From Candidatus Latescibacterota bacterium (lineage in GTDB: Bacteria; Latescibacterota; UBA2968; UBA8231), in the NCBI GenBank assembly GCA_965248265.1, contig CBDFJF010000002.1, forward strand, positions 1,152,001 to 1,216,000: 64,000 bases of DNA, given 5' to 3'. The translations under genes and the position numbers were made by a program. Shown here piece after piece: positions 4,299-44,444 of the stretch. Within the stretch, counting starts at the first letter, position 1, and every line of letters begins with the position of its first letter. The notes under the pieces were generated by a model that made no database searches, was not told where the DNA came from, and saw only the letters and a list, made by a program, of their open reading frames with translations.

Positions 4299-4468
4299 CC
4301 AGCATTGATGGCGGTTCTTTGTGGGGTGACGGTCGATCGACGAAAGCTGAGGCTTCGAACAGTGTCCTCGGAGCCGCTCTGAGCGAACCGGGCGTTTTCA
4401 GCGACAGATCAGGGCACAGCGGTGACGTTGCTGTGACCGCGAATCGATTTCAGGCGGCGAAATCCAGT

Positions 4469-5884
4469 TCAGGTTGGGGGTGGGGGCGTGCGGGTGCGAT
4501 CGGCGGTGCCCGCGCGCAATGGAGCGGGCTCGGTAAGGGCCGCAACTCCCTTCATCGGGCCGCCGCAGGCGGGGCATATGGTTACGTCGAATCGAAAAAC
4601 GCGTGCCAATAAGGTCGACCAAGAAAGGCGATGACGGCGTTGGGCGGGCGTCGGCTCAGAACCTCGACCGGGGAGCGCCTGGGGGTCCTGCCTCTCTTCC
4701 TTGGGACCCGGTACAATCTGTGCCCGATCGGCCGCATTGGGTGCCAACACGCCATGGTAGCGCACCAGGTTGAGGCGCCGTGGCGGCACCAGGGCGGCCA
4801 GTTTCTCGATCAATTCTTGTGGCGAAAGTTCAATTCGATATGTGCCGTCTGACCAGGGTGTCTTCAGTTCGAAGGCCACCTGCTCGGCATCGAGGATCTG
4901 CAGGCGTCCCGCTGCCAGCGGTGGTCGATTGACGTAGCGGCACAGTCTTTCCAGGCGAGTGCGGTCGGCGGCCGGCACGCAGGTGGCCGCAAGCAAAGAG
5001 AATCCACGCGAAGCGAAGCACAGCGGGCCGGTGCGGATGCCCTCTTGAGGATCGAGCAAGCGTCGGCGCACAGGTTGACCGGAGCGCTCGCCGGTAGCCA
5101 CCGGACCCTGGATCGAGGCCGCCGTGATCGTCGCCAGGAGGGGCTCCTGTTCCCACAGCGGATCAACGCGGCCCTCTTCCAGCAGGCCACGACGTTGCAG
5201 CAGGCGCAAAACGCGTCGCGCCGTGGTCTCGACGATCTGTTGCACATCATCATCGCTAAGGGTCGGTGCGGCCACGAACTCCGGACCCACCTCGCCATCG
5301 ACGTAGACGCCGTCGATCATGAGGACATGGACGTGAGGATTGAGATTCAAAGATGACCCGAATCGCTGCACGAACGTCACCGAGCCGCAGCGACTGTGTT
5401 CGTATCCCTGCGCTCGTGCCTGACGTCGATACCAGCCGTAGACGACGCGCAGAAAAACGGCCAGTATCGCGCCCACCAACTCGCCGTCCCAGGCCAGGCG
5501 ATAGCGGATCTCATACGGCAGACTCAGCACCCATTGCCGCACCGGTACCCGCGGCAGGACCTCGTCCGTCAAGCGCGCAGCGGTGTCCACCATCCTTCGT
5601 CCCATACAGCTGGGACAAAAGGAACGTCGCTGGCACGAGAATGCGACGACGCGATCCTGAGTCCAGTCCTCACACCGTACCCGCAGGAATCCATGTGCCA
5701 GAATGCCGCATTCCAGATAGGCACGGAGTTCCTTCTCGACGTTGGCCGGCAGCTGGCGGTCCGATGAGCGTGTGCGCTCTACGAAAGTCTCAAGATTCTC
5801 GGCCAGCACCTGGTAAAGAGGTTCCTTCTCGGGGGTTCGGCGACGGTAGGAGAACCCGCTGCCATGGGTGTGAGCGGCTGGCAT
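4469..5884 (-). mobile_element. IS91-family (Y2 rolling-circle) transposase, probably degenerate
   Basis: Zn domain CGILAHGF..AFSCQRRSFCPSC, RQWVLSLP, HUH motif NLNPHVH, LERLCRYVNRPP, RYHGVLAPN, CPACGG. Confidence 0.92.
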
Positions 5885-6231
5885 GCCTTGGTGGCACGCA
5901 AGATGGAGACCAGCCGTGAGTGTGCTCGAGTATCACGTGGTCCTGGCAAGGGAACCGTGGGCACTCGGCTACGCACACGTGTGTACCAGACGACACAACA
6001 CGGCAGCAGCGGACGAGTCCTCGTCGTGACGGAATCAGACCAGACTCGCCAGCGCTACCGCCGTATCTGCCCGGTTCGCTGCGCGACCTCTGTACCAAGT
6101 GATAATGGCGTCTATCGAGCCTACGCGTTGCGCCCAGCAAACCTCATGGGCTCTACTACACGCGTTTGCAGGGGGATGTCTGGATTGCCGATATCAGCGA
6201 CGTCGTGGGCGGTGACTGAAGGGGCTTCCCG

Positions 6232-7023
6232 TTACCTGCCGGGGTGGACGGTGCGCTCGCGACGGGGATCGGCCGCCACTTCGGAGTAGAACAGGCGCTG
6301 GGCCGGCGTCATCCGCTCCAGCGCTTCCTTCGCAGGCCAGTAGCCCCGCCACTTCATGCCGACGTGGTTGTATTTGTAGAACAGGTTGACCCGATCGCGG
6401 TCACTGTTCCAGGGAGCCGCGCCGTGGGCCAGTGCCTCGGTGAAGATGATGACTGAACCGGCCCTGCATGGCACGGAACGCACCGCCGGGTTGTCGATCC
6501 TGCCGTGCTCGAAGGCCCCCATGCCCTTCGGAATGGGGAAGTGGGCGTTGTGGCTGCCGGGAACGCAGATGAATCCGCCTTCCTCCTCGCTGACGTCGGT
6601 CAGGTTGAAGGCGACGACGCTGTGGCCGGCGAAGACCTGCCCGTTGAAATGCCGATACATGAAATGCGGATCCACGCCGTCGCCGCCGCCATGCAGGGAC
6701 AGGCCACCGAACCCCTTGCGGCGAATGAGTGCATATGCAATTTCCAGCCGCAACTGAGGACCGATGATTCGGGTGAGGACGTCGATGACCGGGGGCAGGT
6801 CGATCAAGTCCGCGAACAGCGGGCCCATGGTGGGCAGGTCGCCGACGCTGATCTCGCCGAGCTCAGGTTCGCGGTGGGAGACTCCGGTGGGCAGTTGGTC
6901 GGACGGCGTGCCCTCGACCTCGTGGAGCGCTTCGATGAGCCGTTCGCAGTGGTCGCGGGACAGCACATCCTCGACGGCGAGATAGCCGGCAACATCAAAC
7001 AGATACAGCTGTTCCTCCGTCAA
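6232..7023 (-). CDS. Phytanoyl-CoA dioxygenase (PhyH) family, HGG variant
   Basis: YLFDVAGYL, LSLHGG, GGFICVPGSH, FTEALAHG; TTG start at 7023 chosen just after the upstream stop. Confidence 0.88.
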   Translation of the reverse strand: MTEEQLYLFDVAGYLAVEDVLSRDHCERLIEALHEVEGTPSDQLPTGVSHREPELGEISVGDLPTMGPLFADLIDLPPVIDVLTRIIGPQLRLEIAYALIRRKGFGGLSLHGGGDGVDPHFMYRHFNGQVFAGHSVVAFNLTDVSEEEGGFICVPGSHNAHFPIPKGMGAFEHGRIDNPAVRSVPCRAGSVIIFTEALAHGAAPWNSDRDRVNLFYKYNHVGMKWRGYWPAKEALERMTPAQRLFYSEVAADPRRERTVHPGR

Positions 7024-7027
7024 AGTC

Positions 7028-7759
7028 TCAGCCGCCTTTTTTCGCTTCCAGACGGGCCTTGTCGGCGTCGGACAGAAACGGCCTGACCCCCTCAAGGAAT
7101 TCTGCCAGCGTCTCTTCGAGGGTAGAGGTGGTGGTGTCGAGGACCAGCTTGTTCTTGATGAGGCTGGCTTCGAATTCTTCTTCGAAGCGGGCCAGGACGT
7201 ACTCGACATCCTTGTCCTGTACCACGCCCCGGGTGGGCTCTCCGTCCTGCTTGGACAGCTTCTGTCGCGCCACGGTTTCCGCGTCCGGGAAGAAGTTCTC
7301 GGCCATCCGCTCCCTGATGACTTCCGGCGTCGCTTTCATCAAGACCAGGACGGTATTGGGAGCCTGCTGGAGAATCTCTTTCTCCATGTGCCGGGCCATC
7401 TGTGTTCGCTGACCGTCGGGGCTGCGTTTCGGCGAACCACTATCAGGCCCGCCGTAGCCGTAGTAGAGTGGCGCATAAACCGCTTCCTCGATGTGGAGCC
7501 CCATGAGATGATGGTGGGGAGCACTGTAGAAACCCGCTGATATGTGATAGGTGATCATGTAGCGTTGGAGCATCTCTTTGACCTGGGGATCAACGGCCTG
7601 ATAGCTGGCAGCCGCCTCAGCGCTCAATTCGGAAGAGGGAATGGTGAAGTGGTCGTGGAAGTGGCTGCCATCCCCCATGTTCTCTTCGATCCAGTAGACG
7701 ATCTCGGTCGAGAGCGTCGTCTTGCCGGTAAACTCACAACCGATCATGAGTATGTTCAT
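7028..7759 (-). CDS. P-loop NMP-kinase-like protein
   Basis: N-terminal Walker A GCEFTGKTT; VLVLMKATPEVIRERM; LVLDTT. Confidence 0.7.
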   Translation of the reverse strand: MNILMIGCEFTGKTTLSTEIVYWIEENMGDGSHFHDHFTIPSSELSAEAAASYQAVDPQVKEMLQRYMITYHISAGFYSAPHHHLMGLHIEEAVYAPLYYGYGGPDSGSPKRSPDGQRTQMARHMEKEILQQAPNTVLVLMKATPEVIRERMAENFFPDAETVARQKLSKQDGEPTRGVVQDKDVEYVLARFEEEFEASLIKNKLVLDTTTSTLEETLAEFLEGVRPFLSDADKARLEAKKGG

Positions 7760-7860: not shown

Positions 7861-9027
7861 TCACAGAATGGGCAATGCTGCCGGTGCCGGCGCAGAGAGC
7901 ACCTCGGCACCGCGCTCGGTGACGAGGACATCCTCCTCCAACATGAAGAACGCTCCCTCGGCGAACAGCCCGGGTTCGACCGTCAACACCATCCCTTCTT
8001 CCAGAAGCACATCGCTGTCAGCATCAATAAAAGGTGGTTCGATTATATCCAGCCCCATGGCGTGGCCGATTCCGGTGACGTTGTCGGCGTAGTCGGCGTG
8101 ACCCTGCTGTCGCAATACAGCATTCGAGGCGCGGACCAGATCGGCGATCGGCGTGCCTGGCCTGGTGACCTTGATGGCCGCCTGCAGGCAATCGTAGGTG
8201 ACACGGTAAAGCTGTGCGTGTGCGCTGCTGGCGCTTTCCAGCGCGAACATGCGGGTATAGTCGGACCAGTAACCGCGGTACACACCGCCGGCATCCTGGG
8301 TGATGAGTTCACCGGAGGTCAGCACGCGGTCGGTCGGGCGTCTCAGGGTCTGGTCCGAAATCCGCTGGGAACCGGGAATACACGGCGACATCGAAATGGA
8401 ACCGGGCAGTTCAGCACCACGGTTGAGGTGTTCGATCGCCAGAAACTGATAGACCTCCCGTTCGGTCATGCCCGGCTTTATGGCCGCGAAGAGCGCTTCG
8501 TAGACCTCGTCGGTGATAGCCACGGCCGCACGGACACGGTCCACCTCGGCCTTCGATTTGCGAGCCCGCAGCTGCCACATCATCGGCGAGGCGTCGACGA
8601 AGTCGATGCCGGGAAGGTTACTTTGCAGCTGGCGCAAATCCTGGTAGGGCATGCGCATCCAGTCCATGCCGCCCAGCTCCGTACCGATGCGTCCTCGCGC
8701 CAACCCCAGTTCGCGCACCGCCTGCGCTATGGCGTCAACACCCTGCAGGGTGTGAGATGGAGGGAAGGAGCGAACGGTTTCGATCCAGGAGTCCTCTGCG
8801 CACATCGAGGCCTCCATGGGCGTGACGATGAGGACCGCCTCACCCTCCAGTGGAAGGAGGGCAAAGATGCCCGTGTACTTGTGACTCCATCGATGCGTGA
8901 CATGGCCGGTGAAGTAGCGGTGGTTGGATTCGGTGGTGAGTAGTACGGCATCGACGTCCCGTGCTTTCATGAGGGCCCGCAGGCCCGCAAGCCGGCGCTG
9001 GTACTCCTCTGCCGCGAATTCATTCAT
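7861..9027 (-). CDS. M24 Xaa-Pro peptidase/creatinase family
   Basis: DAGGVYRGYWSDYTR, GHAMGLDIIEPP, TVEPG, LEEDVLVT. Confidence 0.92.
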   Translation of the reverse strand: MNEFAAEEYQRRLAGLRALMKARDVDAVLLTTESNHRYFTGHVTHRWSHKYTGIFALLPLEGEAVLIVTPMEASMCAEDSWIETVRSFPPSHTLQGVDAIAQAVRELGLARGRIGTELGGMDWMRMPYQDLRQLQSNLPGIDFVDASPMMWQLRARKSKAEVDRVRAAVAITDEVYEALFAAIKPGMTEREVYQFLAIEHLNRGAELPGSISMSPCIPGSQRISDQTLRRPTDRVLTSGELITQDAGGVYRGYWSDYTRMFALESASSAHAQLYRVTYDCLQAAIKVTRPGTPIADLVRASNAVLRQQGHADYADNVTGIGHAMGLDIIEPPFIDADSDVLLEEGMVLTVEPGLFAEGAFFMLEEDVLVTERGAEVLSAPAPAALPIL

Positions 9028-9277: not shown

Positions 9278-10111
9278 ATGAACGAAGTTGAGTTGTATGA
9301 GTTTGATCGGCAGGGCTTCATCGTCATCCCCGGACTGCTGACACCGGACGAAGTGGCCTCGCTGTCGGCGGCCATCGATGTGCTGGAAGAACACGCCCTG
9401 AAACATGTCGATGAACCACCGCGCAAGAAGAGTGGCTGGGGAAGTGAGTACCACCAAAACCAGGAAAAGGGGTATCACGCCAGGGGCTCGAACGACGAGG
9501 GCGCCACCCTCATAATCGAGGATTACTGGAACTCCGATCCGGTATTTGATGTGTTGCTCCAGCACGAGGCTACAATGGGGTACGTCGACGCGGTGATTCA
9601 GGGGCGTTCGACGATCAACAACTCCGAGATCCGCATTCGCTATCGCGACAATCAGAGCGGCAATCACGGAGGTGGGGTGCGCGAGGCGAATGCCAAGTAC
9701 CGCTACAACTTCAACAGCCACGGCATCGATTGCATGATGGTGCGTATGGTCTACTTCGTGCACGACGTGAACGACGAACAGGGTTCCTTCTGCGTTGTGC
9801 CGGGCACCCACAAGGGCCATGTGGCGTGTCCCTACGGCACTGATCCGGATATCGAACCGGGGGTTGTGGGTCTGGAGGTGAAGGCGGGAGACGGCGTCTT
9901 TTTCACGGAAAGCCTGCGTCACGGGGGCCTGACCAATCGCACCGATCAGGTGCGCAAGACGCTGCACGTGGGGTACGGGCCGCATTTCATGATGTCGCAG
10001 AACACGGCTACCGTGGACGAGCTGCCTTATATCACGGATGAGACCAGAAGGCGCCTGACGGCAGAGCAATTCGCCTTGTTCCGGCCTTATCCGGCTGTCG
10101 CACAGAGCTGA
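9278..10111 (+). CDS. PhyH family dioxygenase, HGG variant
   Basis: YEFDRQGFIV, GNHGGG, FCVVPGTHK, FTESLRHG. Confidence 0.9.
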   Translation: MNEVELYEFDRQGFIVIPGLLTPDEVASLSAAIDVLEEHALKHVDEPPRKKSGWGSEYHQNQEKGYHARGSNDEGATLIIEDYWNSDPVFDVLLQHEATMGYVDAVIQGRSTINNSEIRIRYRDNQSGNHGGGVREANAKYRYNFNSHGIDCMMVRMVYFVHDVNDEQGSFCVVPGTHKGHVACPYGTDPDIEPGVVGLEVKAGDGVFFTESLRHGGLTNRTDQVRKTLHVGYGPHFMMSQNTATVDELPYITDETRRRLTAEQFALFRPYPAVAQS

Positions 10112-12642: not shown

Positions 12643-13527
12643 ATGACGCCAGGCGGTAGAATCAACCGAGTCGTCGAACTCCTCGCCGCGGATCAACCCA
12701 TCTACTACACCGGGGCCCACGCAGGGCACGTGCTGACACACGAGCAGGGGGTGGAGGACGCCGCCACCTGGGCCGACTACATCAACGTCGGCATGGAACA
12801 CGGATCGTTCGATATGACCGGTCTTGACCAGTACCTGGCAGGACTCGTCGCCGGTGGGCCGACCCGCAGTGGCCATCGCACTCCCGCCGTGATCGTAGAG
12901 GCCCCGGTGGAGGGGGTGTCCGAGGAGATGGTGCGGTTCAATGCCTGGCAATTCCGGCAGATTCTGGCACGGGGGGTTCATGGCATTCTGTTGTGCCAGG
13001 CAGAGTCAGCGGCTGCGGTGCGGGCTTTTGTCGAGTCATGCCGATATCCAGTCAATCAGATCGGTGTCGGAGAGGGGTTGGGCATCGGCCGGCGTGGCGT
13101 GGGATCGGAACCGGTGTGCGCTGCTGTGTGGGGGGTGGGTGACTCCTACATCGCCAGGGCCGATCCCTGGCCTCTCAACAAGGATGGTGAGTTGCTGCTT
13201 GGCGTCAAAATCGAATCCGTCGACTCCCTGCCCCACATTGAAGAGATTCTGGCCGTGCCGGGCATCGGCTTTGCCGAGATGGGGCCCGGAGATCTGGGTA
13301 TGTCACTGAGATCTCAGAAACTCGTGCAACCGTGGCAGGAGTTGATGCAGGAAACACATGAACGGGTCAAAGCGGGATGCGTGCAACACGGAATTGCCTT
13401 TCTCGAAGGCGCTACGCCGGAGACGATTGTCGAAAAGATCGACGGAGGGGCGCGCGTTATCGCCGGAGGAAACGAGGAGACCGCACGGGTGGGACGGTTG
13501 CACAGCGGCCGTCAGATGCCAGCGTAG
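12643..13527 (+). CDS. HpcH/HpaI aldolase/citrate lyase-like protein
   Basis: MEHG, QILARGVHG, GVKIES, EEILAVPGI, GPGDLGMSL. Confidence 0.8.
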   Translation: MTPGGRINRVVELLAADQPIYYTGAHAGHVLTHEQGVEDAATWADYINVGMEHGSFDMTGLDQYLAGLVAGGPTRSGHRTPAVIVEAPVEGVSEEMVRFNAWQFRQILARGVHGILLCQAESAAAVRAFVESCRYPVNQIGVGEGLGIGRRGVGSEPVCAAVWGVGDSYIARADPWPLNKDGELLLGVKIESVDSLPHIEEILAVPGIGFAEMGPGDLGMSLRSQKLVQPWQELMQETHERVKAGCVQHGIAFLEGATPETIVEKIDGGARVIAGGNEETARVGRLHSGRQMPA

Positions 13528-13560
13528 CGGTAGATAGAATCTCACAGTAAGGGGGAAGAG

Positions 13561-15207
13561 ATGGGCAACCAAACAGTTCAAGTTCTCAATCCGATGGGGC
13601 ATCCGCCGAAGATCGGTCAGCTCGGTATGGCTCCGCGGCCCGATTCGCTCGAAGGTCGAACCGTCTATCTGGTCGATTGCCGTTTCGACGACGGCGATAT
13701 CCTCATGCGTCAGATGGGGGAGTGGTTCGCAGAGCACCGTCCCGGCACCAAGGTGGAAGTACGTCGCAAGTCGAACGTCTACTTGGAACGCGACGACGCA
13801 CTGTACGAGGAGATCAAGCAGGAAGGAGATGCGGCCGTCATCGGCGTCGGCCACTGAAGCACGTGCGCGCCGGCGGTCGCCGACCAGTGCATTACCATTG
13901 AGACCGAATACGGAGTGCCGACAGCCTCCGTCCAGACCGACATCTTCGAACCCCTCGCCCGGGCCCAGGCCGTATCGCGGGGGATGCCAAAACAGCGATT
14001 CGTCTTCGTCCCTCAGCCAGTGATGGGCAAGTCACCGGCACAGCTGCGGGCTTATGTCGACGGACCCGATCCCATCACCGGCCGTCCGTTCATGACGGAA
14101 GTAATCGAGGCGCTGACGCGCCCATCTGGCGACGAAGAGACTGAGGTCACCACCTTTGATCGATCCACACCCCGTTTCTGCGAGCCGGACTCCGAAGAGA
14201 ACCTTCATGAGCTCTTCCTCCAGCAAAACTGGACGGACAAGCTGCCCGTCGTCCTGCCCACGGAGGCACGGGTGGAAGCCATGCTCAGGGCGACGAGTCG
14301 GGATCCTGATCAAGTGGTAGGACAAATGCGGCCGACGGCCCCGCGGGAGGCGTGGGAATACACGGTCGAGAAGGTCGCCGTCAACGCAGTGATGGCCGGT
14401 GCAAAGCCCAAGTACTTTCCAGTCATCCTGGCTCTGGCTTCGACGCAGGTCACCGCTCGTGCGAGCACGACGAGCTCCGCGGCGGCGATGGCCGTCGTCA
14501 ACGGTCCCATCCGTGAAGAGATCGGCATGAACTCGGGCGTCGGCGCCATGGGGCCTCACAACCACGCCAACGCCACGATTGGGCGCGCATACGGGCTGCT
14601 GTCTCAGAACGGCCAAGGGGGGTCACTCCCGTTGCACACCTACCTCGGCTCTCAAGGCAACAACTATGCCTACAACAGTCTCTGCTGCGCCGAAAACGAA
14701 GAGCGCAGTCCGTGGGATCCGCTCCACGTTCAGCACGGTTTTGAGGAGGAAGACAGCACCGTCAGTGTGTTCGGAGGCTGTCAATCCACTGCCTTCACGC
14801 TCGGCCTTCGGGAAAAGCACTGGCAGGCCCATGTCGTCCAGATGCTGCGCGGCATGGACCCATTTATGAAACCCACCTTCGTCCTCGACCCGATTACGGC
14901 CAATCAGTTCGTCGACCGCGGCGGGTTCGACACCGTAGAGAAGCTGAAAGGTTGGGTTCACGAGAATGCCACGATGGAGGCCGGCGTCTACTGGGACTAC
15001 CAGTTGATCGAGAACTACATCGAGCCACGGGCACTGGCCGGCATCGAGCCCTACGCCACGATGCTGCAGGCCAAGGACGACGAACTCATACGCATGTGGC
15101 CGAAAGACAGGATCAACGTCGTCGTCGTTGGAGGCGAAACGAATGGCTACTGGCGCATCTTCGGTGCCAGCCACGCGAAGACCGTGTCCGTCGACGAATG
15201 GCGGTGA
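13561..15207 (+). CDS. UGSC-type (seleno)protein fused to conserved unknown domain; in-frame TGA at 13855-13857 probably read as Sec
   Basis: Both ORFs share one frame; ..DAAVIGVGH-TGA-STCAPAV..IETEYGVPTASV.. is a UxxC motif with open frame between; C-part WTDKLPVVLPT..VEKVAVNAVMAG..NGPIREEIGMNSG..ANATIGRA. Confidence 0.8.
13859..13890 (+). promoter_or_regulatory. Candidate bacterial SECIS hairpin
   Basis: Upper stem CGGC/GCCG (13871-13882) with G-starting loop GGTC 18 nt after the TGA; possible lower stem GCAC/GTGC. Confidence 0.5.
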
Positions 15208-15339
15208 GTCTCGATGCCGAGGGGACCCCGACCGTCAATTTTCTGGGTGGAGTTGATCGCCGAGGACCGAAAACCAACAGGCTAGACCTCATCGCGAGAC
15301 TATCATTGAATCGAATTCAGGAGACAGGCAGGATCACCG

Positions 15340-16308
15340 ATGAAGAATATTGAGCTGAGCCGATGCGGGCGCGTCGCCGTCGAGACCTGCATGGCTGTCA
15401 AATCGGGAGAGCAAGTGCTCGTCGTCGCCGATACGATGGCTGACTCCAGCGTCACCGACGCCCTGCACGGCGCGGCGCGAGCGGCAGGAGCCGAGGCCAT
15501 GGCCCTGGTCTTCCCGGCGCGTCCTCGCGGCGGCATGGAGCCACCAGATGCCGTGGCGGAAGCGATGAAGTCCGCCGATGCCGCTTTCCTCCATACCTCG
15601 GCGTCGCTGACACACAGTAAGGCACGGATCAGCGCACAGGCAGCCGGCACCCGCGTCATCTCCATGCCAGGGGTCAGCGAGGAGGGATTTCTGCGCACGC
15701 TGTCGGCGGACATGATGCCGCTGGCCGAGCTGACGCAACGCCTTGGAGCCCTTCTGGATCACGGCCGTTCGGTACGGATCACCTCCGACCTGGGTACGGA
15801 TCTGACCCTCGAACTCGGCAATCCGACTCTCGTCCTCGACGGACTGTGCCACACCGATGGCGACCTCGATACCTTTCCGCCCGGGCTTGCACTCAGCGTG
15901 CCGCCCGTAGGGACCGTGAACGGGCGGGCGGTCGTCGATGGCTCGGTCACCAGTATCGGCCGTCTGGCAACGCCGATCACGATGATCTTCGAGGGGGGGC
16001 GCGCCGTGCGCCTGGAGGGGGGGCCGGAGGCCGACCGCCTCGATCAGCTACTGTCGCAGTTCGATGACCCGGGGGCCTATGAGTTCGCGGCCTGGGGCAT
16101 GGGAACCAACCCGGGTGCTCGCCTGCTTGGAGATGAACCGAGCTTCGAAGGGGAGCGTCTCTTCGGCTGGGCTCATGTCAGCACGGGAAGTAATGTGGCT
16201 CTGCCGGGCGGGACGGTGCAGGCGCCCATCCATCTGGATGGGATCCTGGCTATGCCAGAGGTCGAAGTGGACGGAGAGGTCGTCATGTGCAAGGGACGCT
16301 TCGTTTGA
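15340..16308 (+). CDS. M29 aminopeptidase-like metalloprotein
   Basis: VKSGEQVLVVAD, EPPDAVAEAM, GTDLTL, NGRAVVDGS, GMGTNP, HLDGI. Confidence 0.8.
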   Translation: MKNIELSRCGRVAVETCMAVKSGEQVLVVADTMADSSVTDALHGAARAAGAEAMALVFPARPRGGMEPPDAVAEAMKSADAAFLHTSASLTHSKARISAQAAGTRVISMPGVSEEGFLRTLSADMMPLAELTQRLGALLDHGRSVRITSDLGTDLTLELGNPTLVLDGLCHTDGDLDTFPPGLALSVPPVGTVNGRAVVDGSVTSIGRLATPITMIFEGGRAVRLEGGPEADRLDQLLSQFDDPGAYEFAAWGMGTNPGARLLGDEPSFEGERLFGWAHVSTGSNVALPGGTVQAPIHLDGILAMPEVEVDGEVVMCKGRFV

Positions 16309-17307: not shown

Positions 17308-18669
17308 TTAGTAGGGAGTCTCTCTGGTCGTAATCGGACACCATCTCGTCGTGGTCAGGTACTCGATCAACATGTCTTTGGCTTCATCCGTGCCGATGCG
17401 CTGCAGCGCCAACACCACTTTTCCCCGAACGTAGCGATTCTCGTGGTTCAGGCACGGGGCAAGTCTCGGTACGACCTCGGCAGCCTGTGACCCGAGACGA
17501 GCCATCGCCAGCAGCGAGTGGCGGACGACCCAGGGCTCCGAATCTTCGAGCGCATCGATGAGGGACGGGATGGCGGTCGCCGCCGCGTCACCGACATTAC
17601 TGAGTGCCCAAGAGGCTTTTGTGCGGACGTCACTGTCCTCGTCCCTCAAAGCGGTCTGCAGGGTCCCGATTGCCGGTGCCGCGGGCAAGCCCATTTCGCC
17701 GAGTGCATCGACGGCGGCCGCTCTGGTCTCGGCGCGTTCGGCGCCGACCACTTCTTCGAGTGCCGGCACCGCGGCCTGGCCGATTGCCGCGAGGCCGTAG
17801 CCGGCGTTTCGTCTCAGGTCTTCGTTGTCAGATGACAACCGCGTGATCAACTCAGGCATTGCTCGAGCGCCCATGGTGGCCAACGTGTAAGCTGCCTGAA
17901 AGCAGGTGGTCTCATTGGCATCCTCGAGTCGCAGGAGCAGTTCGCCGACGTCACCGTCGCCGGTCGCTTGAGAGCCGTTGCCGCTATTGCCGGAGCTCCA
18001 CTCCCACATGCTCCTCCACATGCTATTGCGACGATCCTCCGTGTCGGGCCAGCTGAGGTCGCTGGAATCCCAGGTCGGTGATGCGGGTTCCGACATGCGT
18101 GTAAAAAGGAACTTGTACATGTAGCGTTGCCCGTTGCCGATTTTCTCGGACCGGCGATGCCACAGGTCATAGTGAACGATGGTGATGGAGCCGGCGGGTC
18201 CACAGAAAGGGGTCTCTTCCCCCACCTCTGAGTCCGGCTCGTGGTTGTAGTACTGTGAACCGGGCACGACCGTGGTCGGGCCGAGCTCGACATTGGTGTC
18301 CTGTGGATAGTAGAAGGCCATGCACCAGCGGGTGCGGGGCCCCTTGCTGCTGCCGTCACTGTGCAGGCGCGATTGGTTTTCGGGGCCGAGAGGGCGGCGG
18401 TGACAGTAGCGGTGCGCGTTCAGATGGTATCCAGCCCCCAGGATGCTGCTGAGCGTGCCCGTGACTTTGGGGTGGTCCAGGACCTGATGCAGCTCAGGTA
18501 TCACCGCCATGACGTTGTTGCCCGGATTACCCGACATCTCCATGGACTCTTCCGACCGCTTGAAGACGGTCTCGTGCAGGCCCGGCATGTCCGTCTCGAA
18601 GGTGATGAATCCCTTGCGAATGAACTCCCTCATGCCTTCATCATTCAACATTTCTTGATGGTCTGCCAT
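17308..18669 (-). CDS. PhyH dioxygenase fused to HEAT/PBS-lyase repeats (copy A)
   Basis: LHSDG, YYPQDT, GPTTVVPGSQ, HYDLWH; repeats such as LRRNAGYGLAAIG, RAAAVDALGEMG. Confidence 0.88.
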   Translation of the reverse strand: MADHQEMLNDEGMREFIRKGFITFETDMPGLHETVFKRSEESMEMSGNPGNNVMAVIPELHQVLDHPKVTGTLSSILGAGYHLNAHRYCHRRPLGPENQSRLHSDGSSKGPRTRWCMAFYYPQDTNVELGPTTVVPGSQYYNHEPDSEVGEETPFCGPAGSITIVHYDLWHRRSEKIGNGQRYMYKFLFTRMSEPASPTWDSSDLSWPDTEDRRNSMWRSMWEWSSGNSGNGSQATGDGDVGELLLRLEDANETTCFQAAYTLATMGARAMPELITRLSSDNEDLRRNAGYGLAAIGQAAVPALEEVVGAERAETRAAAVDALGEMGLPAAPAIGTLQTALRDEDSDVRTKASWALSNVGDAAATAIPSLIDALEDSEPWVVRHSLLAMARLGSQAAEVVPRLAPCLNHENRYVRGKVVLALQRIGTDEAKDMLIEYLTTTRWCPITTRETPY

Positions 18670-18762
18670 CTTTGGCCTCTCCGCGCCTTTTTGCGGTTTA
18701 AGAAGCAACAGATTTCTGTCAGTCTTTTTGATTCTAACATTTTATTCAAAAACAAAGGTATC

Positions 18763-20002: not shown

Positions 20003-20236
20003 GTGTGGAAGGCGACACGCTTTATGGCCATCGCCGCCGCTTCAGTGCGCGGCACCGTGGGCACCGGAGACCGCGCCGGGCAACGGCACAGGCGCGTGCT
20101 CAAGGACCCGGCTCAGGCAGTGCGCACGGCGCCTCTGTGCTTTGCCTCCAGAGGGTTCTCACTCCATGCAGCCACCCGAATCGAGAGACGCAACCCCGCC
20201 GCGCTCGAGCAGCGCAAGCTGACGTCAGTACGGTGA
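20003..20236 (+). pseudogene. Internal remnant of IS91-family transposase
   Basis: AASVRGTVGTGDRAGQ..DPAQAVRTAPLCFASRGFSLHAAT matches AASIQGPVATGERSGQ..DPQEGIRTGPLCFASRGFSLLAAT of 4469-5884. Confidence 0.85.
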
Positions 20237-21619
20237 GTCGTCGGTCGTGATCGGGCACCAGCGCGAGGTCAGCAGTTCCTCGTATAGAGCCTCCCTGGCG
20301 TCGTCGGTGTCGATGCGCCTGAGGGCGACGCCGGCGTTAAAACGGACGTACCGGCTCTCGTCACGCAGCGCCACGACGAGGGAGGGTACGGCGGCGCCGG
20401 CATCAGGTCCGATCTTGGCGAGTGCCCGGGCGGCATTGTCGCGGATCCACTCCAGTTCATCCGACAACAGCTGTCCGAGGGCGGGTACCGTTTCGGGAGC
20501 AGGTTTGCCAATCGCACCAAGCGCTTCGGTGGCGTTGCGCCGGACCCAGTCCGAGCTGTCGCTCAATGCTCGGGTCAGCGCCTCGACAGCCTCGGGTGAA
20601 CGATCACCGGGTGGAATATCGCCGAGGGCGTACGCCGCGCAGGCGCGGATGGTGCTGTCGTCGTTTTCCAGAGCCGCGATGAGTGCCGGGGCGGCCGACT
20701 CGCCGGCGGCGGCAAGGGCAAAAGCGGCCGGATGCGAACCGTCCTCGCGGCTGCCGTCGAGGGCTTCGATGAGCGGCGGCACGGCGGACGCGCCACACGA
20801 GCCAAGGGTGTAGGCGGCATCGAGTCTGACCGCTTCATCCTCGTCGGCCAGAGAAGCCACAAGCTCTTCCACCTTCTCGCGATCGTCCGTCGATTCACTG
20901 CCGTCATTCCCCGAGCCGCGGTTCCAGTCCCAGAGTTCACTATACACTCGATCCAACTCGTCGACCGCGCCTGAGGGCGACTGCCAGTGAGCAGCTTCGT
21001 TGTTCCAGGAGGGTGAATGCGGCTCCTCGAGGCGTGTAAAGAGGAATTTCAGCATGTAACGTTCTTGGTCGCTCGCATTCGGGGTGGCACCGTGCCATAG
21101 ATCGTAGTGAACGATCGCAACGGTTCCGGCCTCTCCGCACAGCGGTAGTTCCGGTCTTAGGTGAGCGCGTTCCCCGGTGTCATAGTACTGTGACGCGGGC
21201 AGGATGGCCGTTGGCCCCATGTCGACGGTCGTATCCTGAGGATAGTAGAACGCCATCGCCCAGCGGCAGCGGTGGTGGCGCACCTGTTCATCACCCTCAT
21301 ACGAGTCTTTGTGCATGTCCTGGCCCTTGGAACCGGGCCGGTTGGTGTGACAGTAACGGTGGGTGTGCATGACGTAACCGGGGCCGAGGATGCTCGTCAG
21401 CGCGCCGTGAACGGCAGGGTCGTCGAAGACCTGCTGGATCTCCGGTATGAGGGGCAGGAGGTTGTTGCCGAGCGACCCGTGTCGCGGGACGAGGTCCTGC
21501 AGGCGACTGTGAATGCCCTCGTGCAGAGATCGGGCCAAGTCCGGCTTCACAAGCAGGTATCCATCAACCACGAACCGTTTCATCCCCTCGTCATCGAGCA
21601 GCAATCCATTGTCCGCCAT
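20225..21619 (-). CDS. PhyH dioxygenase fused to HEAT/PBS-lyase repeats (copy B)
   Basis: MHKDS, RWAMAFYYPQDT, HYDLWHG; repeats such as VRRNATEALGAIG; paralog of 17308-18669. Confidence 0.9.
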   Translation of the reverse strand: MADNGLLLDDEGMKRFVVDGYLLVKPDLARSLHEGIHSRLQDLVPRHGSLGNNLLPLIPEIQQVFDDPAVHGALTSILGPGYVMHTHRYCHTNRPGSKGQDMHKDSYEGDEQVRHHRCRWAMAFYYPQDTTVDMGPTAILPASQYYDTGERAHLRPELPLCGEAGTVAIVHYDLWHGATPNASDQERYMLKFLFTRLEEPHSPSWNNEAAHWQSPSGAVDELDRVYSELWDWNRGSGNDGSESTDDREKVEELVASLADEDEAVRLDAAYTLGSCGASAVPPLIEALDGSREDGSHPAAFALAAAGESAAPALIAALENDDSTIRACAAYALGDIPPGDRSPEAVEALTRALSDSSDWVRRNATEALGAIGKPAPETVPALGQLLSDELEWIRDNAARALAKIGPDAGAAVPSLVVALRDESRYVRFNAGVALRRIDTDDAREALYEELLTSRWCPITTDDSPY

Positions 21620-21906
21620 GTCAACTCGCCTCCGGTCTCTCTGTAACTGGTTTGTCCCCCGCACCGGGCAAGGGGGGCTTGGCGCGACCGGCAGCTTCCT
21701 TCTCGATGAGCTCGTCGATGTCAGCGTAGGCGTACACAGTTGGCGCCATGTTCTGCATGAGCCGCCCGTATCCACAGGTCTCTGGGGAGGATAGGGAAGG
21801 CAGCTGTGCCGGTCGAGTTGACGTCATCGCCAGCCTGGCTTCAGTTTGAGGCATCGGAAGCGGCACGGCCGCATCGGTCACCGGAATCAGTTGCGAGGAT
21901 CAGAAG

Positions 21907-29150: not shown

Positions 29151-29187
29151 TTGCGGGGGAATTGACATGGCACCCGGCTTGACGTAT

Positions 29188-29201
29188 CTTGACATGTCAA
29201 G
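29188..29201. promoter_or_regulatory. Perfect 14-bp palindrome, probable operator of the Doc-type TA pair
   Basis: CTTGACATGTCAAG 12 bp before the antitoxin ATG; extra TTGAC boxes at 29162 and 29179. Confidence 0.6.
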
Positions 29202-29213
29202 CAAGGGGGCGTC

Positions 29214-29426
29214 ATGGCTGCTACGAAAATCAGTTCCAAAGTCGAAGAATCCGTCTGGAAGGACCTCCAGCAACTGGCGGGGGAGTCCCACCAGAGCATT
29301 TCGGGGCTTCTCACTGAAGCCATTCGCGAATACGTCCAGCGACGGCGCGTACGTCCGGAGGTGCTTCGACATCTGGATTCCTCGATTGCAGAAAACGAGG
29401 AGTTGGGCCGGCGACTTGCCCAGTGA
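29214..29426 (+). CDS. Small ribbon-helix-helix-like antitoxin
   Basis: 70 aa, KISSKV..SISGLLTEAIREYV..ENEELGRRLA, directly upstream of Doc. Confidence 0.78.
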   Translation: MAATKISSKVEESVWKDLQQLAGESHQSISGLLTEAIREYVQRRRVRPEVLRHLDSSIAENEELGRRLAQ

Positions 29427-29805
29427 TCGCGTCCAATACCTGAGCGTGGATGAGGTGGTCGCCATCCACGACCGCCTCATCGATACATTCGGTGGCGCCG
29501 CAGGCACACGCGACCTCGGCCTGCTCGAGAGCGCTCTCTTTCGTCCCCGGACTGGTTACTACTCCGACATCACAGAAATGGCTGCGGCCCTTTTCGAATC
29601 GCTGCTGATGAACCATCCATTCGTCGATGGCAACAAGCGAGTCGCCTTCTTTGCCACGGATGTCTTCCTGAGATTGAACGGCTGGAAACTCCAGGTCGAT
29701 CCGGAGGAGGCGCACAGGTTCCTGATCGGACTTCTGGACGAGGGCCACTGTGATTTCGAGCGCCTGCTACCGTGGATCGGTGGGGTTCTCGAGGAGACCG
29801 ACTGA
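29416..29805 (+). CDS. doc: Death-on-curing (Fic/Doc) toxin
   Basis: YLSVDEVVAIH, RDLGLLESAL.RP, HPFVDGNKR. Confidence 0.92.
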   Translation: MPSDRVQYLSVDEVVAIHDRLIDTFGGAAGTRDLGLLESALFRPRTGYYSDITEMAAALFESLLMNHPFVDGNKRVAFFATDVFLRLNGWKLQVDPEEAHRFLIGLLDEGHCDFERLLPWIGGVLEETD

Positions 29806-38725: not shown

Positions 38726-39538
38726 TCATGCTGAAGCGGCGTACTCGCCCCTGGCATTCCAGCCCGGGTACTGCTCCTCCAAACGCGCCAGAGTCTGACT
38801 GTCATAGTAGGAATGCCCCGCGGGAGGAAATCTGAAGAATTCTCGCTGCCTCGCCGTCAGCGAACCGATGAACTTCGCGAAACGCTCTTTCATCCCCAAG
38901 CTGGTATAGCAGAACATCCCCTCCCAGTAGTGGTCGGCGCGCCCGTAGATGCGGGTGACGGAATACCGTTGCCCCTCTTTGCCGTTGAACACGGTCGCTG
39001 AATGCCACAAATGGGCATTGAAGATCATCAGCGTCCCCGCCGGCACCACCAGCAAGACCTTCTTGGTCAAATCCTTGCCGTAGGGCTTGGGAATGATCCG
39101 CATGGGTGCCTGGTCTTCGCTTACTCCCTCGGGAAAGTACCATGAGCTGATCTGCGCGTACCTCTTGTTGTCGCAGGGAGGCAGAAGCGAGTTGTTGACA
39201 TTATCTATGTGCAGCCCCGGCTGTGTCGCCTCCGGGACGGGATACTTGGCCCAATTGTGGGCGTAACGGAAGTGAATATCTTCACTGTCGAGAGCCCGTT
39301 GCACAAAGTCGATGAGGTCCTCATCGACGGTGAGTTGGTTGAACAGCTGCTCGCCGTAGGGAAAGTCGTCGTCCCCGATGCCGCTTTCCGGCGGATCGTC
39401 CTTGATCTCTTCCCAGGGGGGGATGGTCTCGCGTAGCGCGGCGGCAATGCGCGCTCTCTTCTCTTCCTCATAGAAGTTCTCGACGACTACGAATCCCTGT
39501 TCTGCAAATGTATTCAACTGATCATCTGACAGCTTCAT
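38726..39538 (-). CDS. PhyH family dioxygenase
   Basis: FAEQGFVVV, LHIDN, AGTLMIFNAHLWH. Confidence 0.88.
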   Translation of the reverse strand: MKLSDDQLNTFAEQGFVVVENFYEEEKRARIAAALRETIPPWEEIKDDPPESGIGDDDFPYGEQLFNQLTVDEDLIDFVQRALDSEDIHFRYAHNWAKYPVPEATQPGLHIDNVNNSLLPPCDNKRYAQISSWYFPEGVSEDQAPMRIIPKPYGKDLTKKVLLVVPAGTLMIFNAHLWHSATVFNGKEGQRYSVTRIYGRADHYWEGMFCYTSLGMKERFAKFIGSLTARQREFFRFPPAGHSYYDSQTLARLEEQYPGWNARGEYAASA

Positions 39539-43559: not shown

Positions 43560-44444
43560 ATGGCGATGGTGAGCATGACCCAGGTCAGACCGCTGGAAGA
43601 CTCGACCTATCTGCTGGGTGATCCCGCTGCTCTGAGGTCGCGAGCTGAGGAGGAAGGGGCGCTGTTTTTCCGCGGACTCCTCGACAACGACTCCGTCCTC
43701 AGTGTCCGGCGTCAGATTCTCGAAGTGTGTGCATCACACGGCTGGGTGAATCCAGGATCCGACCCGATGCAGGGAATCGCCAATCCCAACGTGACAGTGG
43801 GAGAGAGTCAGGATCCGCGGTGGCGCGCCTTCTATGGGGATGTTCAGAAATTGCGCGACTTCCACGCTCTCGCACTGCATTCGGCCATAATCGGGGTCCT
43901 CGAGACCTTGTTCGGCGAGTCGGTCCTACCCCACAGCCGAAACATCTGCCGGCTGGTTTTTCCCGGTTCGGCGGAATTCTCGACGCCACCCCATCAAGAC
44001 AACCTCTATATAGGAGGCTCGCAACAAACCTGGACGGTGTGGATACCAGGAGGAGACTGTCCCGTGGCTCTCGGGGGATTGGCCTTTGCGACCGGTTCGC
44101 ACACGGCGGGCCAATTGGCAACACGGGCGGCCGTCGGACCGGGTGGGAGCCAGGTCGACGTCGATGAGGAGACCGCGTGGATGGGTGGCGATTATTTAGC
44201 GGGCGATGCCGTGTTCCTTCACAGTCTTGCCATCCACCAGGGGCGGGACAACGACTCCGGCAATCTCCTGCGGGTTTCGTGCGACTACAGGTATCAGCCG
44301 CGATCGCATCCGGTGCGGGAGGATTCCCTCCTGCCACACATGGGTTGGCAGTCCTGGGAGGAGATCTATTCGAACTGGGACCAAGACGATTCGATGAAGT
44401 ACTACTGGAATGACTGGAATCTGGATGTGGTTGCCAGGGGGTGA
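43560..44444 (+). CDS. PhyH family dioxygenase
   Basis: TPPHQD, WTVWIP, GGLAFATGSH, AGDAVFLHSLAIH, RVSCDYRYQ. Confidence 0.92.
   Translation: MAMVSMTQVRPLEDSTYLLGDPAALRSRAEEEGALFFRGLLDNDSVLSVRRQILEVCASHGWVNPGSDPMQGIANPNVTVGESQDPRWRAFYGDVQKLRDFHALALHSAIIGVLETLFGESVLPHSRNICRLVFPGSAEFSTPPHQDNLYIGGSQQTWTVWIPGGDCPVALGGLAFATGSHTAGQLATRAAVGPGGSQVDVDEETAWMGGDYLAGDAVFLHSLAIHQGRDNDSGNLLRVSCDYRYQPRSHPVREDSLLPHMGWQSWEEIYSNWDQDDSMKYYWNDWNLDVVARG

Follow-up and report, generated by a model that had tools for sequence, protein, structure and literature searches.

The 64-kb stretch of a Candidatus Latescibacterota contig analyzed here (hereafter, the window) contains, at positions 13561..15207 of the plus strand, a reading frame with a single internal TGA (13855..13857, +), which we propose to be a selenocysteine (Sec) codon. 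Gene calling with translation table 11 divides this region into two open reading frames (ORFs). The first (13561-13857) encodes 98 amino acids, has VIGVGH as its C terminus and is closed by the TGA at 13855-13857; its ATG is preceded by a Shine-Dalgarno-like AGGGGGA (13550..13556, +), identified by direct reading of the sequence. The second encodes 430 amino acids from a GTG at 13915, located 354 nt (118 codons) past the ATG. The codons AGC ACG TGC (S-T-C) follow the TGA, and the same frame remains open until the TGA at 15205-15207, which is the real stop. Reading through the internal TGA gives one chain of 548 residues, with the proposed Sec at position 99 in the motif H-U-S-T-C and a resolving cysteine, Cys102, encoded at 13864-13866 (+). 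This chain includes an N-terminal domain of the UGSC family (residues 8-166; 13582..14058, +) and a C-terminal domain called “Unknown_1” (residues 170-548; 14068..15204, +), and the TGA is followed by a hairpin resembling a Sec insertion sequence (SECIS; 13863..13892, +). The initial annotation of this DNA had described the VIGVGH-TGA-STC junction, the continuation of the frame into the 430-residue ORF, the distance between ATG and GTG, and the motif H-U-S-T-C instead of U-G-S-C, and the translation bears out all of these. The literal U-G-S-C is absent from the window protein and appears in distant relatives, as C-G-S-C in Variovorax and U-G-S-C in Paracoccus. From comparisons of sequences, we propose that the TGA at 13855 very probably is a Sec codon. 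That the whole interval is one gene for a 548-residue selenoprotein, working by the redox mechanism proposed below, is the best explanation we can offer, and we hold it with considerable confidence.

The identity of the TGA can be assessed from the relatives of the protein. A word-indexed search scored 6905 protein homologs, and we counted motifs in the best 120. Among these, 98 are full-length (540-569 amino acids, query coverage of 98-100%), with alignments over 99-100% of the 548-residue chain, and 96 of the 98 have GVGH-C-S-(T/S)-C, i.e., a cysteine at the column of the TGA. The remaining 22, which at 71-96% identity are the closest relatives, are deposited as proteins of 407-441 amino acids with five different starts, all past the TGA column, and the named entries among them are called “hypothetical protein.” Such scattered starts are typical of gene callers that stop at a Sec codon and pick arbitrary starts, in line with the expectation of the initial annotation that standard procedures would split the gene. 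A scan of genomes gave 26 loci, 24 of which cover the Sec column. The codon is TGA in 23 of them and TGC in one (L020), and none of the 23 TGA loci has another internal stop. By the titles of their records, these loci belong to Latescibacterota, Caldilineaceae, Anaerolineae, Methylomirabilota, Gammaproteobacteria, several Alphaproteobacteria, and Moanabacter. Hence, both a cysteine and a kept TGA, the two states that the initial annotation proposed to look for in homologs, are found at this position, which supports its reading of the TGA as Sec in a UxxC motif.

Selection on the preceding codons tells a similar story. In two other Latescibacterota loci (L001 and L002), the alignment begins at residue 1 of the frame starting at ATG 13561. 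Over the 85 codons preceding the TGA, the ratio of nonsynonymous to synonymous rates (dN/dS) is about 0.1 in both comparisons (0.083/0.715 with L001 and 0.077/0.765 with L002); the same calculation was unusable for L022 and L026, where gapless codon pairing fails and amino acid identity is 0.12-0.15. Since these codons are under purifying selection, the 98-residue upstream ORF must be translated as protein. In a maximum-likelihood tree of 38 sequences, the window gene groups with the two Latescibacterota sequences (support 100/100), and the Sec and Cys forms are interleaved, the supported branches forcing at least three changes.

The hairpin provides a further line of evidence. RNAfold predicts a lower stem (13863-13868 paired with 13887-13892, +), an apical stem (13871-13874 paired with 13879-13882, +) and a GGUC loop (13875-13878, +) whose first G is the 18th base past the TGA, confirming the stem-loop with a G-initiated loop that the initial annotation had placed 18 nt after the TGA. 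An alignment spanning -12 to +60 relative to the TGA was built from the window and the 23 TGA loci; 22 of its 24 rows are distinct. The GGUC loop is invariant, and the four apical pairs are formed in all 22 distinct rows of Sec forms. Two of these pairs show compensatory changes, from G-C to C-G in 4 rows and from G-C to A-U in 7 rows. The number of paired cells and the covariation score exceed those of all 500 shuffles and those of the slid controls. The alphaproteobacterial clade has a continuous stem of 8 bp; the clade of the window has an internal loop, followed by a stem of 4-6 bp. The hairpin is absent from all five DNAs of Cys forms (L020, three Neorhizobium loci, and one Variovorax locus), four of which have a CGUC loop and a noncomplementary 3' arm. 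In fdhF of Escherichia coli K-12 (RefSeq record), GGUC starts 19 nt past the TGA. In bacterial SECIS elements, the G and U of the loop are the contact of SelB. Rfam gave no match in the window at gathering scores, and whether it includes a bacterial SECIS family was left unchecked. Comparison across homologs thus shows the hairpin just 3' of the UGA to be a candidate SECIS, which would direct the decoding of this codon as Sec.

The N-terminal domain matches Pfam PF24696 (E 4e-26; 92.6 bits for a gathering cut-off of 25) over profile positions 2-159 of 172, and the match crosses the TGA. This vindicates the assignment of the N-terminal part to the UGSC family in the initial annotation. The score with the equivalog NCBIfam model NF041046 (UGSC_fam) is 68.6 bits, under the curated cut-off of 125. 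Two Cys homologs, P0050 and P0011, are also under it (64.4 and 59.1 bits), and P0050 is nevertheless named “UGSC family (seleno)protein” by NCBI, which is the name it gives to full-length Cys homologs. An AlphaFold2 model of the whole chain, built with 45 sequences, has a predicted local distance difference test (pLDDT) score of 93.9 and a predicted template modeling (TM) score, pTM, of 0.92. In this model, strands and helices alternate in residues 34-167, and U99 is predicted to lie between the strand of residues 91-97 and the helix of residues 102-117, which would be the classic position of a redox CxxC. The initial annotation had called this domain thioredoxin-like. The matches listed by Foldseek against PDB for the whole chain are weak (TM of at most 0.19 of the query) and Rossmann- or flavodoxin-like, e.g., WrbA, IIB-cellobiose, and lumazine synthase, with no thioredoxin among them. 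Hence, “thioredoxin-like” describes the motif and not a demonstrated fold.

The C-terminal domain corresponds to the Unknown_1 domain depicted by Zhang and Gladyshev (2008) in Figure S1A. In comparisons made by eye, the window motif AVNAVMAGAKPKYFP corresponds to the printed AVNGVMAGCRPEYMP... of the Unknown_1 alignment, and AVNAVMAGAKPKYFPVILALA...VVNGP of the window to the printed AVNGVMAGCRPEYMPILIALA...VLNG, a likeness that identifies the domain as a homolog of Unknown_1 (PMC2398784). S306, N337, R342, and E378 are among its invariant or nearly invariant residues. The domain is widespread (4210 clusters at 50% identity, E<=1e-3) and matches no Pfam or NCBIfam family, which agrees with the initial annotation, where it was seen as a widespread uncharacterised domain fused to the Sec domain. 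Among the 150 best of the 4210 clusters, 20 have representatives of 500-599 amino acids, 31 of 400-499, 91 are shorter, and 8 have 600 or more. Modeled alone, the domain has a pLDDT of 92.8. A sequence search of PDB with family profiles gave no matches for it, either at E<=1 or at E<=10. With the domain alone, the best Foldseek match is a class I fumarate hydratase (E 1.3e-3, TM 0.23, root mean square deviation of 17 A), and “Toblerone-fold” cyclic amide hydrolases rank next (E >= 0.066). We considered both folds and rejected them, the matches being too weak for an assignment. The ESM Atlas returned only the family's own clusters for the C-terminal part, with automatic names such as “thiol-disulfide oxidoreductase.” Distant proteins of 561-574 amino acids with an Unknown_1-like segment are encoded by plasmids of Vibrio europaeus and Sporomusa termitida (L037 and L038), where genes for aconitase X and DUF126 are found within about 2 kb of the Unknown_1-like gene.

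Some records of relatives are worth describing in their own right. The gene of L020 (10001-11619), from a metagenome-assembled genome of Eremiobacterota and the only TGC locus of the genome scan, has 8 stops in the naive frame past residue 188, a sign of frameshifts or of errors in the assembly. The Cys-form gene in the record of Neorhizobium galegae VafX2 (L027, 7623-9291) is split into two overlapping ORFs. Plasmid pFER4 of Paracoccus ferrooxidans (CP038202.1; L036) carries at 4402-4971 a UGSC gene that stands alone and includes an in-frame TGA (GLAN-U-GSC). It is annotated as two “hypothetical proteins,” and thus exemplifies a mis-split Sec form in a cultured strain. The first bases of an Unknown_1-domain gene (4968-6059) are shared with this UGSC gene, and about 4.4 kb downstream selB begins, at 9374. 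Finally, some relatives of fused length (500-600 amino acids), including P0124, P0137, P0138, and P0150, lack CxxC at the aligned motif, where they have, e.g., VGLGGATS or PGHMDTLG. A simple pattern search of residues 71-140 found no CxxC in 15 of 20 representatives of fused length. Either the local alignment is poor, or some members have lost the redox motif.

What could a protein with this architecture do? The gene neighborhoods of relatives offer some clues. A gene resembling thioredoxin reductase (TrxR) adjoins the UGSC/Unknown_1 gene in 13 of 33 sources. It is directly upstream and on the same strand in all seven loci of an alphaproteobacterial clade with GVGL-U-S(T/S)C (L015, L017, L018, L021, L022, L024, and L026), and the four of these TrxR-like genes that were scanned match TIGR01292 from end to end with 241-289 bits, under the cut-off of 343. 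It is directly downstream in three Neorhizobium Cys forms (L027, L030, and L031), and is also present in L025, Arthrobacter, and Variovorax. The Arthrobacter operon has the order trxB-trxA-Unknown_1-UGSC. Both Variovorax loci encode a TTT binding protein, in SRS16 together with trxB, an SDR, Unknown_1, and a small ORF, and in V. boronicumulans together with an FAD oxidoreductase and a fused gene with the C-G-S-C motif. In two haloarchaeal plasmids, adjacent UGSC and Unknown_1 genes lie beside a coenzyme A (CoA) transferase, a RraA-family gene, and TRAP/TAXI transport genes; the Halorientalis neighborhood also includes a CoA ester lyase. The full-text literature found under “UGSC” consists of selenoproteome surveys and reviews, with no functional study of the family and no mention of a TrxR-like partner. 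From its recurrent position, the product of the TrxR-like gene looks like a dedicated reductase partner, and its adjacency in these 13 sources suggests an NAD(P)H-driven reductase.

These observations lead us to propose the following mechanism. The UGA at 13855 would be decoded as Sec under the direction of the downstream GGUC hairpin, placing a redox motif, U99-S-T-C102, where a strand ends and a helix begins in a UGSC domain fused to Unknown_1. The Sec/Cys pair may cycle between selenol/thiol and selenenylsulfide, and could be re-reduced by NAD(P)H through a TrxR-like flavoprotein, which seems dedicated and adjacent in many relatives; in the organism of the window, this role would presumably fall to the housekeeping system. 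The pair could then attack a small substrate bound by the C-terminal domain, or hand reducing power to it. The TrxR-like neighbors of relatives support a flow of electrons that starts with NAD(P)H and runs through the flavoprotein and U/CxxC to a substrate on Unknown_1. This substrate is probably a small organic acid that is imported, as hinted by the neighborhoods of relatives, which include TTT and TRAP solute-binding proteins, LysR regulators, SDR dehydrogenases, CoA transferases, and HpcH-type lyases. A broader idea, which we offer tentatively and consider rather doubtful, is that UGSC, Unknown_1, and a dedicated TrxR-like flavoprotein make up a three-part reductase, driven by NAD(P)H and not described before, of bacteria and haloarchaea, many of them aerobes, in which Sec or Cys is the residue that attacks, or passes electrons to, a small imported organic acid bound by a catalytic domain without a relative in PDB. 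Such a system would be a functional analogue of glycine and proline reductase, without sequence relation to them. If this were true, the window gene would be a Sec-boosted single-chain version, drawing on the housekeeping thioredoxin system.

A number of results weigh against this interpretation, some against the decoding of the TGA as Sec and others against the proposed function. Neither selA, selB, selD, nor the tRNA for Sec was found in the 64-kb window by a tRNA search, which gave no tRNA of any kind, and by an analysis of the domains of 46 ORFs. The folding energy of the hairpin is unremarkable (z of -0.77, with 38 of 200 shuffles folding at least as well), so that its significance comes from the comparison of homologs only. 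Even in that comparison, the count of pairs with double changes falls within the shuffles (292/500 and 278/500), as does the count of further pair types (492/500 and 495/500), and the lower stem is not conserved between clades, with 64.5% of its cells paired. Since the hairpin lies in coding sequence, part of its conservation reflects constraint on the protein. The C-terminal domain yields no usable functional homology. The conserved cysteine of Unknown_1 (in MAGC), marked in the 2008 paper (PMC2398784), corresponds to Ala281 in the window, and 45 aligned relatives have 30 alanines and 15 cysteines at this position. No TrxR-like gene is present near the window gene or in its 16 closest loci. 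The synteny with the window's neighbors is not conserved either, the sole shared element being an HpcH-like gene about 5 kb upstream in L007 and L008.

Could the TGA be explained in another way? Three alternatives were weighed. The one that fares best, which we still judge improbable, is that the UGA is read through without Sec, by near-cognate insertion of Cys or Trp or by leaky read-through, in a lineage that has lost the Sec machinery. A cysteine works at the Sec column in most of the family, and the search for the Sec machinery, covering only the 64-kb window, leaves room for such a loss. However, the conserved hairpin, with GGUC and its distance from the TGA as in fdhF, is found only in TGA forms and corresponds to what SelB-dependent decoding requires. 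Furthermore, had the lineage no Sec machinery, one would expect TGC or TGT to have become fixed, and the tree shows repeated changes of this kind.

The second alternative takes the TGA as a true stop, making the locus either a pseudogene with a nonsense mutation or a naturally split pair of 98 and 430 residues, the latter starting from the GTG at 13915. Table 11 calling yields exactly these two ORFs, the closest relatives are deposited as proteins of 407-441 amino acids, and no Sec machinery was seen in the window. Yet, a nonsense mutation would hardly be kept in 23 of 24 loci of distant lineages, all 23 devoid of other stops, nor would the upstream codons have a dN/dS of about 0.1. Between the TGA and the GTG, 19 codons show conservation at the protein level and lie within the PF24696 match; they include Cys102, and splitting the chain would part this residue from U/C99. 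As for the short database entries, they begin at five positions, as would be expected from arbitrary starts of gene callers. We thus regard a true stop as very improbable, even more so than read-through without Sec. The third alternative, a recoding of TGA across the organism as in genetic code 4 or 25, has only the open frame in its favor and can be given almost no credence, since TGA terminates 30 of the 60 ORFs examined, including genes whose ends are reached by their Pfam matches (e.g., the M24 peptidase at 7861-9027), and the window has 60% G+C. TGA is an ordinary stop in this organism. Decoding of the UGA at 13855 as Sec remains, in our view, the reading that best accounts for these data.

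This codon is also singular within the window. There are 25 pairs of ORFs joined by one TGA, and the TGA at 13855 is the only one crossed by a family match. The other pairs that were checked were rejected as Sec genes, being neighbors in the same frame or lying inside or opposite longer ORFs. Two cases merit mention: an epimerase followed by an enolase-superfamily protein (21907-22680/22693-23805), and a TonB receptor followed by an ABC binding protein (47742-49628/49632-50606). Both pairs share a frame with a TGA in between, and they are not Sec candidates because each half has its own complete Pfam domains.

At 33 nt upstream of the gene lies an HpcH/HpaI-type aldolase; the ORF 132 nt downstream has a weak resemblance to M29 peptidases. 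A scan of 13300-15500 for promoters and terminators gave nothing informative. Further away, the window has four paralogs of phytanoyl-CoA dioxygenase (PhyH; 6232-7209, 20225-21775, 38726-39538, and 43560-44444), one of which is fused to HEAT repeats, and a further HEAT-repeat protein at 17308-18708. PhyH genes also flank the homologous gene in Caldilineaceae (L007 and L009) and are nearby in Moanabacter (L019). A transposase of the IS91 family (Y2_Tnp and Zn_Tnp_IS91; 4469-5884, -) lies about 8 kb upstream of the gene, and a Fic/DOC-domain protein (29167-29805, +) follows directly an enolase-superfamily gene.

If the TGA encodes Sec, the consequences for annotation are immediate. The deposited entries for the window gene and for its closest relatives, found in Latescibacterota, Caldilineaceae, and other lineages, are then “hypothetical proteins” truncated at the N terminus and deprived of their active-site Sec. 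A simple rule, a TGA at the GVG(H/L)-x-S-T-C column together with a GGUC hairpin at +18, would repair hundreds of entries. The recurrent adjacency of TrxR-like and organic-acid transporter genes gives a concrete and testable reductase hypothesis for an abundant family, and the Cys forms of Neorhizobium, Variovorax, and Arthrobacter provide tractable cultured hosts for that purpose. What interests us most is the chemistry that the C-terminal domain may carry out, and how often this domain is linked to a dedicated TrxR-like reductase.

How does this gene compare with known systems? As in the SECIS of E. coli fdhF, the hairpin of the window lies directly 3' of the UGA within the coding sequence, with GGUC at 18 nt instead of 19 nt. 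The stem sequences differ, and the window's apical stem has only 4 conserved bp above a lower stem that varies between clades. The predicted position of UxxC, between a strand and the helix that follows it, is shared with the oxidoreductases of thioredoxin fold, whereas the window model alternates strands and helices and thioredoxin is missing from its listed structural matches. A functional analogy could be drawn with the selenoproteins of glycine reductase (GrdA/GrdB) and D-proline reductase (PrdB), based on the layout of the grd operon. In these systems, as may be the case for UGSC/Unknown_1, a Sec/Cys motif is recycled by the thioredoxin system, and the Arthrobacter operon holds both trxB and trxA. 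In contrast to GrdB and PrdB, to which the window protein has no sequence similarity (Pfam at E<=0.1 gives PF24696 only, and no GRDB), relatives of UGSC/Unknown_1 occur in aerobes and haloarchaea, and no pyruvoyl-type partner is evident.

The closest comparison is with the UGSC family itself. The relevant parts of Zhang and Gladyshev (2008) describe “UGSC-containing” proteins as a major aquatic selenoprotein family with UxxC, represented in GOS by 255 Sec sequences and 21 Cys homologs, and among the most abundant selenoproteins of aquatic metagenomes; section 9 and Figure S1A present a UGSC/Unknown_1 fusion (PMC2398784). The passages on the family in reviews from 2022 and 2026 still have it as uncharacterised. 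The initial annotation had presented the locus as a hidden selenoprotein. The architecture is neither hidden nor new, since the fusion was published in 2008 and Cys homologs are already named by NCBI. The window protein resembles the published fusion in its two domains, in a UxxC motif with Cys homologs, and in the C-terminal AVNAVMAG-x-P-x-Y-x-P (PMC2398784). It differs from the known family in having H-U-S-T-C, an NF041046 score under the cut-off, and an alanine in place of the Unknown_1 cysteine. Hence, the window gene is a new, U-S-T-C subfamily member of a family whose existence and fusion architecture are already in print.

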